Below, one piece after another: positions 50,322-57,093 of a DNA stretch of 64,000 nucleotides. A model generated the notes under the pieces. It was not told where the DNA came from, ran no database searches, and saw only the letters and a list, made by a program, of their open reading frames with translations. Position numbers and translations under genes: made by a program. Each line of letters opens with the position of its first letter. The stretch's first letter is position 1. The stretch comes from Vicinamibacteria bacterium (GTDB lineage: Bacteria > Acidobacteriota > Vicinamibacteria > Marinacidobacterales > Marinacidobacteraceae): NCBI GenBank assembly GCA_965215615.1, contig OZ244068.1:1852369-1916368 (forward strand), read 5' to 3'.

Positions 50322-50408
50322 GCCGAAGTGGCGGAACGGCAGACGCGCTGCGTTCAGGGCGCAGTACTCCTTGCGAGTGTCAGGGTTCAAATCCCTGCTT
50401 CGGCACCA
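50322..50408 (+). tRNA. tRNA-Leu(CAG)
   Basis: Acceptor GCCGAAG/CTTCGGC-A-CCA; anticodon arm CTGCG-TTCAGGG-CGCAG; long variable arm; GGTTCAAATCC. Confidence 0.97.
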
Positions 50409-50503
50409 GCGCGCACGGTTGGTCGAGTCCCGGTAGCTCGATATGACAGGTTCCGGCATCCCTCCGTGAAACGATATCTCGCGGGGTGGGAAAGGAACGA
50501 CCG

Positions 50504-53167
50504 ATGGATTTCGACCTGAAGACGGACGAAGGGCTGCGGAGTGCCTTCGAGGCGAAGGCCTGCAAGATCGAACCGGAACGCCTGGACCGGGTGACCCGCT
50601 TCCTCGAAGAAGTGGCCGCCACGCCCTCGGAAGAACGGGCCACCGTCGAGTTCCAGCGGAAGATCTGGCGCGAGAAATCGGCGGTCGATATGCAGGATCG
50701 CTTGGGAGAGCGGATCGAGGATCCGGAATTCGCCAAGTGGTTCGTGGAACGGCTGCCACCCGATCTCCCGGCGGATCCCACGGAGCGGAACCAGGCTCTC
50801 GCTCGGGTCCATCGGGAAATCGTCAACCGGATACACGAGCTTTCCCTGAAGACGAACGAAAAGGCAGATCGAGAGTGGATGCAGGTCCGTCGCACTCTCG
50901 TGCACCTTTACCCCGCACATACGGCCGGAACCTGCCACGGCTGGCGGATATGGCAACTCACGAAAGCGATGGGCGGCCCTTCGTTCGACGACGAATCGAG
51001 CAGCCCACATCGACGCACGCTGCAGCATTTCTGGATTCGAAATCGGTTGGACGAGGTGCTCGACGAGCCGAAGGGTATGAGAGACCACGCGCTGCGGGTG
51101 CTGGTCTCGGGAAAACTCGCCACGATGGTGAACAAGAAGGAGAGAAGCGTCTGGCTCTTCCGCGCGGGTGACCAAGGGCAGGAAGAAGAAGCGTGGCTCG
51201 CGCACGGGCTCGCCTTCATCCGCTGGCGCGAAGTGGGGGATCTTTCTGCTGCGACCGACGACAACGCCATACGGGAAGCGTGCCAGGCAGCGTATCCGGG
51301 CGAGAAATCAAAGAGTATCGGCTTTGCGCTCGGCAACCTCAGGCCGTTCGCAACGGGAACGAAGCCGGGTGACTTGGCAATACTGCCACGCAAGCGCCGG
51401 GACTTTGTCTCCATCGGGATCATCACCGGTATCTACTCGTACCGTGAAGTGAACGGTGAGTTTCGGCACACGCTTCCAGTGGAGTGGAAGAAACGAGAAA
51501 TCCCAAGAGGAGTGCTCGACCCGGAAACCAGGAAGAAGCTGGGGGCCTATCAGACTGTGCTCCACCTCGGAGGCTCCGAACTGGCGAAACGCCTTGAAGA
51601 CTGGTTGAACGAACCGGGACTGGAGCCCCTGCCGGCGACTCGCCGCCAGAGAAGTATCCCGCTGCGCTTCGACGAAGTGCTTCACCTCGTGGAGCGCGTT
51701 GGAGATCGACGCCCCTTCGAGGAAGTGCTCGAAGAACTCCGGGCGGAGAACCCGAATTGGAAGAAAAACTCCGCTCACAACCATTTCCATCGAGTGGCCG
51801 CCCCGTTGGGAGTGCTGCGGAGAGCCGGCAGCAACCTCGAAGTCACCGAGCTCGGCAAAGAGCTCCTCGCATCGGGCGACCCCGACGCGCTGCGTGACCG
51901 ACTTCTGACCACGGTCTTCGGACCCGACCACGTGCTTGTCGAGTTGAGCCATGAGCCGCTCGCCTCTGGCGTCCTCGTGAAGCATCTCCAGCGCGTCAAC
52001 CCCGGTTTCCGCACGACGGCCGGCCCGGACGCCCTCCTTGCCTGCCTTCGATCCCTGGATTTGATCGCGAGCGAGGGTGGAAAGAATCAGCTCACCGAGC
52101 GGGGGCGGCGCTGGAGGAGCGCCATCCATTGGCCACCCGAGCCGCTTCCCGGTCCACTCCCGCCGCCTGCCGGCCGGGTCGAGCCACCACCCGTCGCCGA
52201 AGTCGTCAAGAAAGTCACCACCGCAGCGGCCGAGCGGACGCTCGACTTCGACCGGAAACTCATCGAGAACCTCCATTACGGACTCTGGTCCCATGAGCGT
52301 CGCCACTTCGCGATCCTTGCCGGGCTCTCGGGGAGCGGGAAAACCCAGCTCGCCTGGAAGTACGCCCGGGCGGTGACGGGGGCGGAAGGCGTGACCGACG
52401 ACCGCTTCGCGGCAGTTTCGGTCGCCCCGGGCTGGCACGACCCGACTCAGCTGCTCGGCTATGTGAACCCGGTCAACGGGATCTACGTGGGGACCTGGTT
52501 CCAGAAATCCCTGATGAGCGCCGCGGAGAACCCGACCGAGGTCCACGCCTGCGTGCTGGACGAGATGAACCTCTCGCACCCGGAGCAATACCTCGCCCCG
52601 CTGCTCAGCGCGATGGAGCAAGAGGGCGGCATGATCGAGTTCCACGACGGCGACGAAGAGGATCTCGGAGTTCCAGGTCGCATCCTCTACCCCGCGAATC
52701 TGGTGCTGATCGGCACGGTGAACATGGACGAGACCACCATGGGACTTTCCGACAAGGTGCTCGACCGCGCTTTCACCCTCGAGTTCTGGGACATCAACGT
52801 GGACGCGTGGCCGGGTTGGGCGGACTGCCGACTGAAGGAAGCGGACCGGGTCCAACGCGTGCTCACCGAACTCATGGCGGCGCTCCGTCCGGCGCGGCTC
52901 CACTTCGGCTGGCGAGTGATCGCCGAGTGCGTCGCCTTCCTGACCCGCCACGAGGAGGGCAAAGGTGACGCGACGGAAGCTCTCGACACGGTTCTCTACG
53001 CCAAGCTGCTCCCCAAGCTCCGCGGCGACGACTCCGAGCGGTACCGGAAGGCACTGGATACGTGCCGGAAAGTACTCGAGAAGGAAAACCTGAAGCAGTC
53101 CAAAGCCAAGGTGCAGGAACTCATCGAGGACATGCAGGCCATCGGGCACTTCAAGTTCTGGCGGTGA
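50504..53167 (+). CDS. McrB-family AAA+ GTPase with extended multi-domain N-terminus
   Basis: GLSGSGKT, VAPGWHD, LDEMNL, GTVNMDETT (NxxD), SDKVLDRA, KLLPKLRG. Confidence 0.9.
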   Translation: MDFDLKTDEGLRSAFEAKACKIEPERLDRVTRFLEEVAATPSEERATVEFQRKIWREKSAVDMQDRLGERIEDPEFAKWFVERLPPDLPADPTERNQALARVHREIVNRIHELSLKTNEKADREWMQVRRTLVHLYPAHTAGTCHGWRIWQLTKAMGGPSFDDESSSPHRRTLQHFWIRNRLDEVLDEPKGMRDHALRVLVSGKLATMVNKKERSVWLFRAGDQGQEEEAWLAHGLAFIRWREVGDLSAATDDNAIREACQAAYPGEKSKSIGFALGNLRPFATGTKPGDLAILPRKRRDFVSIGIITGIYSYREVNGEFRHTLPVEWKKREIPRGVLDPETRKKLGAYQTVLHLGGSELAKRLEDWLNEPGLEPLPATRRQRSIPLRFDEVLHLVERVGDRRPFEEVLEELRAENPNWKKNSAHNHFHRVAAPLGVLRRAGSNLEVTELGKELLASGDPDALRDRLLTTVFGPDHVLVELSHEPLASGVLVKHLQRVNPGFRTTAGPDALLACLRSLDLIASEGGKNQLTERGRRWRSAIHWPPEPLPGPLPPPAGRVEPPPVAEVVKKVTTAAAERTLDFDRKLIENLHYGLWSHERRHFAILAGLSGSGKTQLAWKYARAVTGAEGVTDDRFAAVSVAPGWHDPTQLLGYVNPVNGIYVGTWFQKSLMSAAENPTEVHACVLDEMNLSHPEQYLAPLLSAMEQEGGMIEFHDGDEEDLGVPGRILYPANLVLIGTVNMDETTMGLSDKVLDRAFTLEFWDINVDAWPGWADCRLKEADRVQRVLTELMAALRPARLHFGWRVIAECVAFLTRHEEGKGDATEALDTVLYAKLLPKLRGDDSERYRKALDTCRKVLEKENLKQSKAKVQELIEDMQAIGHFKFWR

Positions 53168-54684
53168 GCGCGCCCGAACTGCTGGTCCGGCGCGGAGAGG
53201 AATGGATCCCGCTCACGACCGCCCAACCGAACGATGGCTTTCGGGAGCATGAGTCAGCCACCTTCCGTGCGCTGGGCACTCCCGAAGCGCGGGTACTCGT
53301 GGACGACGAACCGCTCCCGACCAACGAATCCGGGGATTGGCTCTGGAGTCCGGGGTTCTTCGCCGGGCCGGTTCGCGCCGAGCTGCTCGACCCATCCGGG
53401 CAAGCTCTTGGCAGATGGACGCTCCAGGTCTCTCCCGATCCGAAGAAAGCACCCGGAGACATCTTCAAGCGGATGGTCGGAGACATCCTCGCCCACCACC
53501 CGGCGCTGCTCGTCGGCGCGGAATCCTCCCGCATCCGATTCGGCGCGCTCGACAGCGGCGACGACCCTTTCGTGGCCCTCGAACGACTCCGGCAACGCGA
53601 AGAAGGGCTGCTTCGCACCATCGCAGTAATCCGGAGGGAGCCGAGAAGCGTGCTCAGATCGCGGCGCGAATTCGTTCCGCTCCACCGGGTGCGCCGCGCC
53701 GACCCGCGAACGCTCGCCATGGCCGTCCGGGAACCCGCCGTCATCGGAGCCATCCGAAGCAGAGAGACAACCGTGCAACCGTTCCTGAGCGTCCCGACCA
53801 CCGAGAGGAGTCTGGATTCTCCGGCGAACCGGGCGGCACTCCTGATGATCCGCGCTCTCCGAAGGAGGGCTTCGGAAACCCTCCGTCAACTGGAGGAGAA
53901 GGTGGAAGCCGAAGATCAGGCCTCGGCGCGAACCACGCTCGCCGGCAAACTGCCGCGCTGGGCGAAAATCCTCGAGCGAATGGCGCGAGCTTTCTCTCGC
54001 GCCGAGCGCATCTCGCCGTTCCGGGATGCCAAGCGGCCGGAAATCACCGCCGCCGGACTCAATGCCGTCGCCGCACACCCGCTCTACCAGCATTTCTGGC
54101 GGCTCGGCTGGGAAGCGCTGCGGCGCGGAGTGTCCCGCTCCGAAGAGGACGAGCTCCCGCTGAGCCCGACCTGGGAGATCTACGAGCGCTGGTGCTACGT
54201 CGAACTCTCCCGCCACCTCGCGCAGCAGCTACCCGGGTGGAAGAAGCGGGAAGGAGGAAACGGAGACCACCGGGAAACCCGGTTCTCGGGGCCGGATGGC
54301 GCGAAAGTCACTCTATTCCTCCAGAAGACCGCGAACCGGAGAACGACCGGCCTCAAGTCCGTCTCGGTCAAGTGCCGACCGGACCTGGTTCTCCGCTGGG
54401 AAACCCCGGCCGGAGCCGGTTTCGTCGTCCTCGATGCCAAGTACCGGACTGCGCAGGACGGAATCCTCGGCGGGATGCGCGAGTCAGCACACCTCTACCA
54501 GGACGCGTTGCGCTGGGACGGGATGCGACCCCACGCGACGCTGCTTCTGGTCCCGGATGCTGCCGAAGCGGAATGGCTCGCTGACGAACGGTTCGTTTCC
54601 GAAAACCGGGTCGGCGTTGCGGCGCTCCGGCCGGGAACCAATCTTCCCGAGTGGATAACCGGCCCATTCCTGCGGATGGGGTAA
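53164..54684 (+). CDS. McrC-like DUF2357 / PD-(D/E)XK nuclease
   Basis: DSPANR, WEIYERWCY, RPDLVL, VLDAKYR, HLYQDAL; GTG start overlaps the McrB stop. Confidence 0.88.
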   Translation: MSAPELLVRRGEEWIPLTTAQPNDGFREHESATFRALGTPEARVLVDDEPLPTNESGDWLWSPGFFAGPVRAELLDPSGQALGRWTLQVSPDPKKAPGDIFKRMVGDILAHHPALLVGAESSRIRFGALDSGDDPFVALERLRQREEGLLRTIAVIRREPRSVLRSRREFVPLHRVRRADPRTLAMAVREPAVIGAIRSRETTVQPFLSVPTTERSLDSPANRAALLMIRALRRRASETLRQLEEKVEAEDQASARTTLAGKLPRWAKILERMARAFSRAERISPFRDAKRPEITAAGLNAVAAHPLYQHFWRLGWEALRRGVSRSEEDELPLSPTWEIYERWCYVELSRHLAQQLPGWKKREGGNGDHRETRFSGPDGAKVTLFLQKTANRRTTGLKSVSVKCRPDLVLRWETPAGAGFVVLDAKYRTAQDGILGGMRESAHLYQDALRWDGMRPHATLLLVPDAAEAEWLADERFVSENRVGVAALRPGTNLPEWITGPFLRMG

Positions 54685-54727: not shown

Positions 54728-55660
54728 TCACGGACTGATTCTCGACCCGAAGACCACCAGCTCACCGAGGCCGGGGATTTCGCGCAACGAGGCGACCCCG
54801 CGGTTGTGCAACTGACGCACTCGTTCCCGTGAAAGCGAAAGCTCCCTTCCGAGCGCGGCAAAGCTCGCGGGCTCCCGCCCGTCGAGGCCGTAGTAGCGGG
54901 TCATCACCAGCCGAAGGCGACCCGGCATCGCCTCGAGTCCGGCGCGGAGCAACGCGCACTGCTCCAGGAGCGCCGCGGATTCAAAGGGGTTTTTGGCGCT
55001 TGCATCCTCAAGGATCGCGGCGAGCGCCGCAACCGGACCATCGAGTGAGATCACATCGGGTGTTGATCGGAGGGTCGCCTTGAGACGCTCGAGCGGAACC
55101 CCGAGCCTTCGGGCGCACTCCTCTTCTGTCTGGCGTTCGCGTCGTCCGGCACGAGAACCGCGTTCTCCCGCCTCCTGCTCCAGTTCGGCCAGCACCCGCT
55201 CGGCCTGACGCCGCAGCAGGAGGACATCGAGAGGAATGCGGATCGTCCGGCTCCTGATGGAGAGCGCGCGACAAACCGCCTGCCGGATCCAGCCCGCCGC
55301 GTAGTTCTCGAAGCGGATTCCCCGCGCCGGCTCGAATCGGCGGGCCGCAGCCAGAAGACCCAGGTTCCCTTCCTGGATCAGATCCTCGACCGGATAGCCG
55401 TAGCGGATGTAGCGCTTCGCGATCCGGACCACGAGTCCCAGATGGGCTTCGACCAGGGCATCCTGGGCTGGGTCGCCTTCAACCGTCTCTCCGCCTCCTG
55501 ACGGATCGCGACGTTCCGCTTCGCTGGCGATCTCGACGCTTCGCATGCGAACCGAACGCAGATAGACCGCGAGCATGTCCAGTTCCTCGCCGGACAGCGA
55601 ATCACCCGCGTCTTCCGACCAGGCATTTTCGAGACGATCCGCGTCCCCACCTTTCGGCAT
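54728..55660 (-). CDS. Additional sigma-70 family factor (RpoD/RpoS-like regions 1.2-4, no region 1.1)
   Basis: YLRSV, AHLGLVVRIAKRY, DLIQEGNLGLL, RFEPARG, WIRQA, RTIRIP, LSRERVRQL. Confidence 0.9.
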   Translation of the reverse strand: MPKGGDADRLENAWSEDAGDSLSGEELDMLAVYLRSVRMRSVEIASEAERRDPSGGGETVEGDPAQDALVEAHLGLVVRIAKRYIRYGYPVEDLIQEGNLGLLAAARRFEPARGIRFENYAAGWIRQAVCRALSIRSRTIRIPLDVLLLRRQAERVLAELEQEAGERGSRAGRRERQTEEECARRLGVPLERLKATLRSTPDVISLDGPVAALAAILEDASAKNPFESAALLEQCALLRAGLEAMPGRLRLVMTRYYGLDGREPASFAALGRELSLSRERVRQLHNRGVASLREIPGLGELVVFGSRISP

Positions 55661-55846
55661 GATCACTGAACCTCGATGGCCCCATCCAAACCACCTGCTC
55701 CTATCTTCAGCCACCAGGATGCCACCCCGCAACCGTGATACCCACATTCTTGGCGGGATAGCCCTTGACGCGAACGAATTCCCTGCTTAACCAGAGTGTG
55801 AGGGAGCGACTGCTGTCAGCATCTCTCCACCAAGGAGGCCCCCGAA

Positions 55847-56146
55847 ATGCTCCGATCCATTTCCCGCTTTTTCATAGCCTTGCTCTTGCCGGCGGCTTTT
55901 GCCGGTTGCGAAGCGCCAAGCGCCGCGCCTGCCATCACCCCGTCTTCTCCGGCGACATTCACCCGGGAACAGGCATCGCGTGAACTCCGGGAACACTTGG
56001 CCTCCCGTGTGGCCGCCTTCGATGCCTCGCTTCGTGATCGGGGTGTTTCCGAGGAGCAACGAGCCGTGATCGTCGCCGAACTCGAACGCATCACGCTTGC
56101 TCACGCCGAGCGAGTGGACGCTCTGGGTCAGCGCTTCCCGTTCTGA
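55847..56146 (+). CDS. Small helical lipoprotein
   Basis: AAGGAGG RBS; lipobox FAGC; amphipathic helices. Confidence 0.7.
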   Translation: MLRSISRFFIALLLPAAFAGCEAPSAAPAITPSSPATFTREQASRELREHLASRVAAFDASLRDRGVSEEQRAVIVAELERITLAHAERVDALGQRFPF

Positions 56147-56195
56147 CACCCCCGCCGAAGAACTCCGACTCCGACCAACCCCTGGAGACGGCCCC

Positions 56196-56480
56196 ATGAG
56201 AATCCCGATCTTCCCCTTCCTGCTCGCCCACATCGCCGTCTTTCTGCTTCTCGCATCTGGTAAACCAGCCGCTCAAGACGCACGGGACTGCGTCAACGAT
56301 TGCTCTTCACGCCTCACGAGGTGCATTCGTGCGTCCGAGGGAGATCTTGAAGCATGCGCCAACCGATGTGGCATTTTCGGAGCCCGAGGGTGCCTTGAGA
56401 GGTGCTACAACGCGCATCAAGATGACATCAACACCTGCCTCAACCGGTTTTCGGATTGCACCGGAGGGTGCTGGATTTGA
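56196..56480 (+). CDS. Secreted 10-cysteine peptide (predicted disulfide-laddered helical hairpin)
   Basis: GGAG RBS, ATG 56196, signal peptide ending PAA-Q; Cys spacing 3-6-10-3-7-3-10-6-3. Confidence 0.75.
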   Translation: MRIPIFPFLLAHIAVFLLLASGKPAAQDARDCVNDCSSRLTRCIRASEGDLEACANRCGIFGARGCLERCYNAHQDDINTCLNRFSDCTGGCWI

Positions 56481-56893
56481 CTCCAGGCTGGTCCGTGAGC
56501 CCGTCCACCCTGCGACTCGGAACCGGGCTCGCTCTCGGCACCGGCATCGGGATCGCGCTCTGGGGCGCTCTCGTCGAGCAATCGGGCGGGCGCGCGGTGG
56601 CAGAAACAGCGTTCGGGGTGGCGCTCGCCATGTTCGTCGCCTTTCCGGTCTGGGTCGCGGTGGGCCGCTGGATTCGCCCCTGGGCCACCTCCGGGTTCTT
56701 CCGCCAACTTGCTTTCGGAACCGTTCTCGGGATCGCGTTCATCGCGCTGCTCAGCCTGGCCACCTCGGTTCTGACCGGACGAATCGGTCCGGAATCGGGA
56801 ATCCTGGCTGGCCTGCTCTTCCCGTTCCTTCTCGGTGTCTGGAACGCTGCGCTTTTGGGGATTGGTATGGGGATCGGCTCGGCCAAATCCTGA
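56477..56893 (+). CDS. Small four-TM membrane protein
   Basis: TTG start overlaps the upstream TGA; GGAGG RBS; four hydrophobic Gly-rich segments. Confidence 0.7.
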   Translation: MTPGWSVSPSTLRLGTGLALGTGIGIALWGALVEQSGGRAVAETAFGVALAMFVAFPVWVAVGRWIRPWATSGFFRQLAFGTVLGIAFIALLSLATSVLTGRIGPESGILAGLLFPFLLGVWNAALLGIGMGIGSAKS

Positions 56894-56970
56894 CGCACCG
56901 AAGCTCGAGTATCCGCGGATCGGGGTTCCGACGCTGATAAGCTCCCCGCGGTCGGGGTCGAGGCACCGCT

Positions 56971-57052
<82 letters not shown>

Positions 57053-57093
57053 GCCGGACCCTTCCCTCTCTACTTCCCGTACAAGGCGATCCG

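Follow-up and report, generated by a model that had tools for sequence, protein, structure and literature searches.

An accessory sigma-factor cassette of Vicinamibacteria encodes an exported hairpin with ten mirror-spaced cysteines and may build a producer-bound envelope complex

Helical hairpins closed by two disulfides are known from plants and from mitochondria. The plant alpha-hairpinins follow the motif XnC1X3C2XnC3X3C4Xn, in which two antiparallel helices are joined by nested C1-C4 and C2-C3 bonds (PMC7191063), and among the mitochondrial proteins motif variants such as CX3C-X14-CX3C and CX9C-X10-CX10C have been tabulated (PMC12114033). The copper-storage proteins (Csp) resemble the bacterial peptide described below in displaying many Cys on one face of long helices (PMC5171941). 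Here we analyse a locus of a Vicinamibacteria bacterium (GenBank assembly GCA_965215615.1, contig OZ244068.1, positions 1,852,369 to 1,916,368; this whole stretch of 64,000 nucleotides is termed the window) that encodes a two-helix hairpin of a hitherto undescribed family, exported and bearing ten mirror-spaced Cys. Its gene lies in an operon with genes for a small lipoprotein and a protein of four transmembrane (TM) segments, opposite a divergent sigma factor gene. The reading that we favour, tentatively and at a little under even chances, is that these genes constitute a horizontally mobile, self-contained cassette whose products form an envelope complex bound to the producing cell, from which the peptide is not freely released. 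The components, in window coordinates, are as follows.

54728..55747, minus strand: sigma-70 family gene (Pfam); longest open reading frame (ORF) 339 amino acids (aa), likelier start the ATG ending at 55660 (M30)
55765..55791, plus strand: promoter-like element TTGACG-N15-CTTAAC, 5' of the lipoprotein-hairpin-TM operon, putative target of the divergent sigma factor
55847..56146, plus strand: small lipoprotein gene, 99 aa (translation), predicted docking partner of the hairpin
56196..56480, plus strand: hairpin gene, exported peptide of 94 aa that matures to a two-helix hairpin (translation, AlphaFold2)
56477..56893, plus strand: membrane protein gene, 138 aa from the TTG at 56477, ORF open from 56456 (hydropathy, AlphaFold2)

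Translation of the hairpin gene (56196-56480, plus strand) yields a hydrophobic, signal-like N-terminal segment followed by ten Cys spaced C3C6C10C3C-7-C3C10C6C3C, the second half mirroring the first, as a first-pass annotation made from the DNA letters had reported. With a turn of 100 degrees per residue, all five Cys of either half fall in the sector of 0-80 degrees and so on a single helix face, which agrees with the same annotation. This pattern is more than chance. In a six-frame regular-expression scan of the 3.0-Mb genome the full pattern has a single match, each half-pattern is matched one additional time, at one guanine-cytosine (GC)-repeat frame, and Cys accounts for 10 of the 68 mature residues versus ~1.1% of the residues in the genome's long open frames. 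The mature peptide is taken here as residues 27-94, with putative cleavage before Q27, and the N-terminus is a Sec-like signal that contains no twin arginine.

AlphaFold2, supplied with a 24-row family alignment, models the peptide as a helix-loop-helix with helices at residues 26-57 and 63-90 and a predicted local distance difference test (pLDDT) value of 91-96 in ten-residue blocks over residues 31-90, so that the helical hairpin proposed earlier is supported by a high-confidence prediction. Foldseek against the PDB returned no match at E<=0.001 for the model of the hairpin or of the TM protein, and a wide fold search with VIA-align recovered generic two-helix hairpins only, the best Z of 9.4 lying within the range common for helical models.

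The likeness to the alpha-hairpinins resides in two helices and a loop with CX3C on the facing helices; indeed, the ladder embeds two such CX3C/CX3C pairs, one inner and one outer. The window peptide, however, has ten Cys and five potential rungs rather than four Cys and two, includes additional CX6C and CX10C steps, and does not fit the family motif. The family is, moreover, bacterial, carries a signal peptide or lipobox, is ~68 residues long and mostly acidic, and the window hairpin is encoded in an operon with a lipoprotein and a four-TM protein, together with a sigma factor. A second likeness is to the mitochondrial twin-CXnC proteins (CHCH proteins with CX9C, small Tims with CX3C, oxidized by CHCHD4/Mia40), which are also helical hairpins with nested disulfides in an oxidizing compartment outside the cytoplasm, a pairing that we infer for the bacterial peptide. 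The CPC that precedes the hairpin of CHCHD4 likewise resembles an extra N-terminal CxxC or CC present in most members of the window family. In contrast, the mitochondrial hairpins possess two disulfides each at other spacings, are eukaryotic, and are imported rather than exported by Sec. Membership of the CHCH/twin CX9C group was rejected, since the steps in the window hairpin are CX3C, CX6C and CX10C, with no CX9C. Neither Pfam nor a profile search of the PDB detected homology of the hairpin family to the alpha-hairpinins or the mitochondrial hairpins; the single match of the family profile among PDB sequences, the vicilin Jug r 2 peptide 7lvg_A, was non-significant (E 1.2).

The view that the hairpin belongs to no named family was borne out by Pfam, NCBIfam and PDB sequences. 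There was no significant match in Pfam, NCBIfam or PADLOC for the hairpin, the TM protein or the lipoprotein, and the proteins of eleven relatives were likewise without a significant family-library match. Against Pfam-A at E up to 1, the hairpin gave a sub-threshold CUE match only, and three of its relatives gave nothing or one sub-threshold unrelated match. In the ESM Atlas the best scores were 0.79 (hairpin) and 0.82 (TM protein), with no named families, and a word-index search with the single hairpin peptide found nothing at E<=0.01. A bacterial exported hairpin with five in-register rungs was found in neither the family libraries, the solved structures nor a limited literature search.

The homologue search that the first-pass annotation had recommended did, however, uncover relatives. 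Searching 1.84 billion representatives with phmmer gave seven matches at E<=0.001; among the phmmer matches P0005, P0007 and P0008 are relatives by inspection, and P0006, P0009 and P0010 were discarded as repeat proteins whose match reflects their composition. With a profile, 5.8 billion clusters yielded 19 proteins at E<=0.01, all of them from metagenome sources and none named. The eight closest sequences share every one of the ten Cys (8/8), and E48, L67 and the C-terminal Ile do not vary among them either. Across all 24 aligned rows, four Cys never vary, and another five occur in 90% of rows or more; C58 is displaced in three rows and lost from one truncated row. The loop comprises 5, 7 or 10 residues in the small hairpin forms, with constant helix spacings, and 6 residues in the long lipoprotein-hairpin forms of three genomes. 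A variable loop combined with fixed helix spacings is what would be expected of a hairpin whose two helices must keep register. The mature peptides are net acidic in 21 of 24 cases, and most members contain almost no His or Met. P0011, the remaining phmmer match and an otherwise unrelated exported protein of 249 aa, contains exactly 30 Cys in three tandem ladder modules with the spacing 3-6-10-3-(8 or 11)-3-10-6-3 and Pro-rich linkers between them. This three-module build argues that the ten-Cys unit is an autonomous module with an even Cys count, and shows that the ladder module occurs outside the small-peptide family. Longer fused forms, sought with the 24-row profile, were not found, which is weak as evidence of absence, and JGI metagenome contigs scanned with a 16-row alignment and with P0028 gave no confirmed locus. 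A weak match in another genome (G005, locus L007, E 0.0058) proved on inspection not to be a relative.

If the two helices face one another, the ten Cys may be joined by five nested disulfides, from C1-C10 through to C5-C6. The case for such bonds is that the mirror geometry opposes every Cys to a partner and that the Cys count per module is even; it draws also on the Sec-like signal and on the oxidative folding genes of the host. Outside the window, a single open frame of 452 aa (G000 1578448-1579605, minus strand) combines a VKOR domain with a thioredoxin-like domain of the DsbA type, and the genome contains two further DsbA-like matches; no DsbB was found in it. An eleventh Cys, in an N-terminal CxxC or CC, is present in 19 of the 24 family members and missing from the window's own subfamily.

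It could be argued that these Cys stay reduced, line the core of a bundle made by one hairpin or two, and ligate Cu(I) or some other soft metal through their thiolates, as Csp proteins do, the cassette being a metal-resistance module. Consistent with this are the placement of every Cys on one helix face, the odd Cys count of most members, the acidity of the peptides, and the mobile and accessory nature of the cassette, which is shared by many metal-resistance modules; the Csp principle itself is that Cys point into four-helix bundles (PMC5171941). Csp proteins, however, are four-helix-bundle monomers, and the AlphaFold2 model has two helices, not four, with Cys that are mirror-paired as for cross-links. 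Neither Csp nor any other metal-binding family was matched in Pfam at E up to 1, and with two helices after the signal segment, membership of the Csp family was rejected. Export appears to be of the Sec type, into a compartment with oxidizing machinery, most members have next to no His or Met as ligands, the TM protein lacks conserved Cys, and the cassette includes no metal-responsive regulator, reductase or pump. We therefore regard a metal store as improbable.

The small lipoprotein that the first-pass annotation had placed upstream of the hairpin is present as a 99-aa ORF with the lipobox-like sequence AFAGC, a Pro/Ala-rich linker and a helical C-terminal domain. Relatives occupy the same position in G008, G011 and G001, and a separate small lipoprotein lies 5' of the hairpin in four loci. 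In four genomes (G015, G024, G004 and G009) the hairpin is instead the C-terminal domain of a longer lipoprotein. Complex prediction with hairpin residues 27-94 and lipoprotein residues 22-99 gave a score of 0.62 (median of three runs, range 0.59-0.75), a confidence that the model assigns to itself; none of three controls exceeded 0.00. Of 80 solved complexes 58 attain the 0.62 mark, as do 2 of 110 mismatched pairs, counts that hold roughly for the present case, in which our own alignments were used. The three runs share at least 82% of contacts, with a partner pLDDT of at least 75. The predicted interface involves lipoprotein residues 37-99 and the hairpin face beside the Cys stripe, including the invariant non-Cys residues E48 and L67. 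Hairpin and lipoprotein would, on this model, form a lipid-anchored four-helix bundle. Separately, the contigs of one public run contain an in-frame 9-nt insertion in the lipoprotein linker, behind 55921, and the same run has no substitution in the hairpin gene.

The TM protein has four hydrophobic segments, modelled by AlphaFold2 as four helices (mean pLDDT 78.9), in keeping with its earlier description; its predicted cytoplasmic segments are short. The hairpin stop codon, TGA at 56478-56480, overlaps the in-frame TTG at 56477-56479 of this downstream ORF, and GGAGG at 56463-56467 lies 9 nt 5' of the TTG, so that both the overlap and the ribosome-binding site described previously can be read directly from the DNA. 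Judged by this arrangement, the TM gene is translationally coupled to the hairpin gene. Among the public runs, two have the TM gene with the same pair of conservative changes, 56594 G>A and 56624 C>A.

Linkage was assessed in 11 hairpin loci: G000 (the window), G008, G011a, G011b, G001a, G001b, G015, G024, G004, G012 and G009. A multi-TM gene lies 3' of the hairpin gene or overlaps it in nine of these, the exceptions being G011b and G009; the overlap is TTGA in the window, a one-base TGATG in G008 and 13 nt in G011. A divergent orthologous sigma gene adjoins the hairpin operon in 7/11 loci, and the genes flanking the module vary between genomes. The linkage of TM gene, lipoprotein and sigma gene to the hairpin, which the first-pass annotation had proposed to test, thus extends to relatives (9/11, four loci with a separate lipoprotein, and 7/11, respectively). 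Indeed, none of the outcomes that it had named as contrary to its proposal (a known-family match, lack of a hairpin, unlinked homologues) appeared.

In 9/11 loci the gene for the small, exported, Cys-rich peptide is coupled to one for a small polytopic membrane protein, which invites the comparison with bacteriocins that the first-pass annotation had drawn. Colicin operons encode four-TM immunity proteins and small lysis lipoproteins, and those of the pore-forming colicins resemble the cassette in that one mobile operon provides an exported protein along with a small lipoprotein and a small polytopic protein of the inner membrane. By analogy, a released hairpin could harm competitors, with the four-TM protein conferring immunity, the lipoprotein aiding release and the sigma factor switching production on; a variable loop on a rigid scaffold would suit such a toxin. 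In contrast to the colicin operons, no colicin-like domain is present here, the lipoprotein is larger and predicted to bind the hairpin, and in some genomes the hairpin is itself lipidated. That the hairpin is covalently part of a lipoprotein in four genomes, and that the window hairpin is predicted to dock on its lipoprotein, argue against release, as does the lack in the cassette of an exporter, a double-glycine leader or an outer-membrane release system. No bacteriocin or immunity family in Pfam, NCBIfam or PADLOC matches the hairpin or TM protein. The net acidic charge of 21/24 mature peptides, together with the tethering, speaks against a classical cationic membrane-active peptide and is still compatible with a receptor-directed toxin. 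We consider a bacteriocin-like toxin unlikely on balance, and return below to the genomic evidence in its favour.

Turning to regulation, the divergent gene was annotated previously as an extra sigma-70 gene, and its Sigma70_r2 (2.7e-19) and r4 (9.3e-10) matches indeed exceed the Pfam cut-offs; r3 (2.7e-4) is below its cut-off. The best NCBIfam matches are to RpoS and RpoD models over residues 54-324, all under the equivalog cut-offs. The window's genome has ten Sigma70_r2 matches including this one, which makes it an extra sigma factor and, by its sequence, an alternative RpoS/RpoD-like rather than the principal sigma factor. An extracytoplasmic function sigma/anti-sigma pair was rejected, given best matches to full-length RpoS/RpoD, a weak region-3 match and divergent genes. 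The MzaA sigma factor of the MZA defence system was rejected too, its model NF041931 scoring 131.6 bits against a cut-off of 800, and the PADLOC MzaA match covers sigma region 2 only (residues 94-175).

Control of the operon by its own sigma factor, proposed in the first-pass annotation, is supported by the promoter-like element. The pattern TTGNNN-N15/16-CT[AT]AA[CT] was found in 5/5 of the sigma-linked loci first examined, 71-161 nt before the first operon ATG. In all, the element, written more broadly as TTGNNN-N15/16-CTWAAN, is present in 7/7 sigma-linked hairpin loci and 0/4 sigma-less ones, a contrast between related loci that overstates independence, so that the counts are not independent trials. 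The pattern is rare: there are two matches on both strands of the whole 3.0-Mb genome, the window's included, and the hexamer CT[AT]AA[CT] occurs only 61 times in the genome. A looser pattern gave 39 matches in 700,858 nt of fetched loci, repeated copies of module loci included. The element also occurs on the sigma side in four of seven loci examined (G015, G024, L030 and L034), with none in G000, G008 and G011.

Such an arrangement could indicate that the cassette is an envelope redox or stress sensor, in which the lipoprotein/four-TM complex reads the redox state of the ladder or of the extra Cys and accordingly retains the sigma factor or sets it free, much as membrane anti-sigma systems do. 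Retention of the divergent sigma gene in 7/11 loci and the sigma-side element in 4/7, which suggests autoregulation, are consistent with this proposal, as is the N-terminal CxxC/CC beside the outermost rung in 19/24 members, which recalls the CPC-plus-hairpin of CHCHD4/Mia40. Against it, the cytoplasmic segments predicted for the four-TM protein are all short, and Pfam and NCBIfam show no anti-sigma domain in that protein, the hairpin or the lipoprotein. The window's own subfamily lacks the eleventh Cys, and hairpin-TM pairs with no sigma gene nearby exist, including a horizontally acquired copy. A sensor of this kind thus appears quite unlikely.

The sigma genes also point beyond the hairpin family. 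A tree of 16 sigma cores (two source loci were removed by the motif filter and one truncated gene was left out) separates, with 99/96 support, a fast-evolving accessory clade from a slow paralogue present in congeners. The fast clade consists of all six module-linked sigma genes and six others, and two of these others, in G013 and G004, face related cassettes with the same promoter-like element. In G013 the lipoprotein gene overlaps the gene of a 98-aa exported peptide with the spacing C2C6C10C-12-C10C6C3C, the ladder minus its inner rung. The family profile aligns with this eight-Cys peptide with its Cys in register in hhalign (E 0.059, probability 0.9%), a non-significant result that leaves spacing and context as the grounds for kinship. 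The G004 cassette (L034 3166-4733, contig C55) has its sigma gene, again from this subclade, between two copies of the element; opposite lies the gene of another kind of Cys-rich lipoprotein, with CGYYPHCI at its end, and after it that of a four-TM protein of 143 aa. All six sigma genes of one subclade with 98/98 support face a Cys-rich envelope cassette, and the G004 locus suggests a wider set of cassettes that pair a sigma factor with Cys-rich envelope proteins.

The cassette is patchily distributed. In a profile search of 401 Vicinamibacteria genomes the hairpin family was found in seven, all of one taxonomic family (6/27 plus the window's genome), and in 0/373 genomes of the class's other families. 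Adding weaker members identified by context, the ten-Cys hairpin is present in 9/28 genomes of that family: G000, G001, G008, G009, G011, G004, G015, G024 and, as a truncated remnant, G012. Within the window's genus G002 and G003 have no match, and G001 has a different, acquired version. The window copy sits in an islet between two tRNA genes that ARAGORN places as follows.

50322..50408, plus strand: tRNA-Leu(cag), left border of the 6.6-kb variable islet
56970..57055, plus strand: tRNA-Leu(tag), right border of the islet

The gap between the two tRNA-Leu genes is 6561 bp in the window versus 142, 1327 and 1693 bp in three congeners, in which the same genes flank the tRNA pair and the gaps hold other content. 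The islet also contains, at 50486-54684, an McrBC-like pair whose two ORFs overlap by ~100 nt as listed: the first encodes an 893-aa AAA_5 protein with PADLOC PDC-M26A and PDC-S02 matches, the second a 540-aa protein with DUF2357 and a PD-(D/E)XK nuclease domain. In G001 (L013 7500-10200) a transposase-like ORF of 275 aa lies between two diverged hairpin-TM pairs, of which one has a lipoprotein of its own, in an island of 50-60% GC between flanks of 70-73% GC; both hairpins begin CC and their loops have 5 and 10 residues. On contig C17 of G024 the lipoprotein-hairpin and sigma genes occur three times, at ~19160, 3182530 and 4493967, with 99-100% identity. One copy is internal; the other two lie near the two ends of the 4.50-Mb contig and may represent a single locus, if a circular chromosome was assembled with overlapping ends. 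The G012 remnant (L031 2107-2421) retains the second half of the hairpin domain only, beside an orthologous sigma gene and promoter element; its first three ladder Cys are gone and are absent from the other frames too, which probably marks it as a decayed copy. The window locus itself recurs, at >=99% identity, in contigs of at least three public studies. Collectively, these data support the view that the cassette is accessory and horizontally mobile.

Several of these features would also be at home in a toxin system, namely the patchy accessory distribution (9/28 genomes), the diverged hairpin-TM pairs that stand in tandem next to a transposase-like ORF within the low-GC island of G001, the sharing of the window's islet with a McrBC-like defence pair, and several metagenomic paralogues on equal-sized contigs that suggest tandem pairs. 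Mobility is likewise a feature of the producer-bound reading, which we prefer on the points against release given above. As a separate observation on this genome, TTAA occurs 194 times and TAAA 735 times on both strands of its 3.0 Mb (66.8% GC), where a rough estimate from base composition would expect ~4,500 of each; TTAA being palindromic, restriction-linked avoidance is one possibility.

In the producer-bound complex that we favour, the hairpin peptide would be exported by Sec and oxidized by the cell's VKOR/DsbA-type machinery to a five-rung ladder of nested disulfides, C1-C10 through C5-C6. With the face that bears no Cys, the ladder would then dock on the lipoprotein at its two C-terminal helices, generating a membrane-tethered four-helix bundle beside the four-TM protein. 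The divergent sigma factor would transcribe the operon from the rare TTGNNN-N15/16-CTAAAY element. The complex could serve exclusion or protection at the envelope, or it could signal back to the sigma factor, both purposes being possible. More speculatively, and in our judgement doubtful, the locus may exemplify a new class of mobile envelope cassettes that carry their own RpoS-like sigma factor with its cognate promoter and a five-disulfide cystine-ladder hairpin/lipoprotein four-helix bundle, with the redox state or the variable loop as the working end.

It should be emphasized that several observations weigh against the producer-bound complex. The Cys pairing is a prediction from mirror spacing and geometry, and the eleventh Cys of 19/24 members is surplus to five disulfides. 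The docking prediction, besides being scored by the model itself, drew on a lipoprotein alignment of only four rows. The N-terminal part of the long forms aligns with the small lipoprotein at an hhalign probability of 27% and over the lipobox only, and we do not claim that the long form is a fusion of that same lipoprotein with the hairpin. Two loci have no TM gene and four no sigma gene, so neither partner is obligatory; the module-linked sigma genes are not monophyletic, requiring three label changes on the tree, and the loci behind the promoter contrast are, as stated, related. Finally, no RNA data were found among the public runs that contain the window locus.

This study bears on how far the helical hairpin with nested disulfides, as known from plants and mitochondria, can be elaborated. 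If the ladder forms, it would provide an unusually rigid scaffold of 68 residues with a freely variable loop, which would be of interest for protein engineering, and it would bear on how the oxidative folding machinery of bacteria handles ten Cys without mispairing. The cassette also illustrates, in compact form, how a mobile element can arrive with a sigma factor and promoter of its own, and the very rare motif lets the specificity of that sigma factor be read, so that its regulon is directly testable. Should the proposed class of mobile envelope cassettes be real, its hairpin would be a periplasmic counterpart of the mitochondrial twin-CXnC hairpins, with a working end that either keeps out invaders or competitors or sends signals to the sigma factor.

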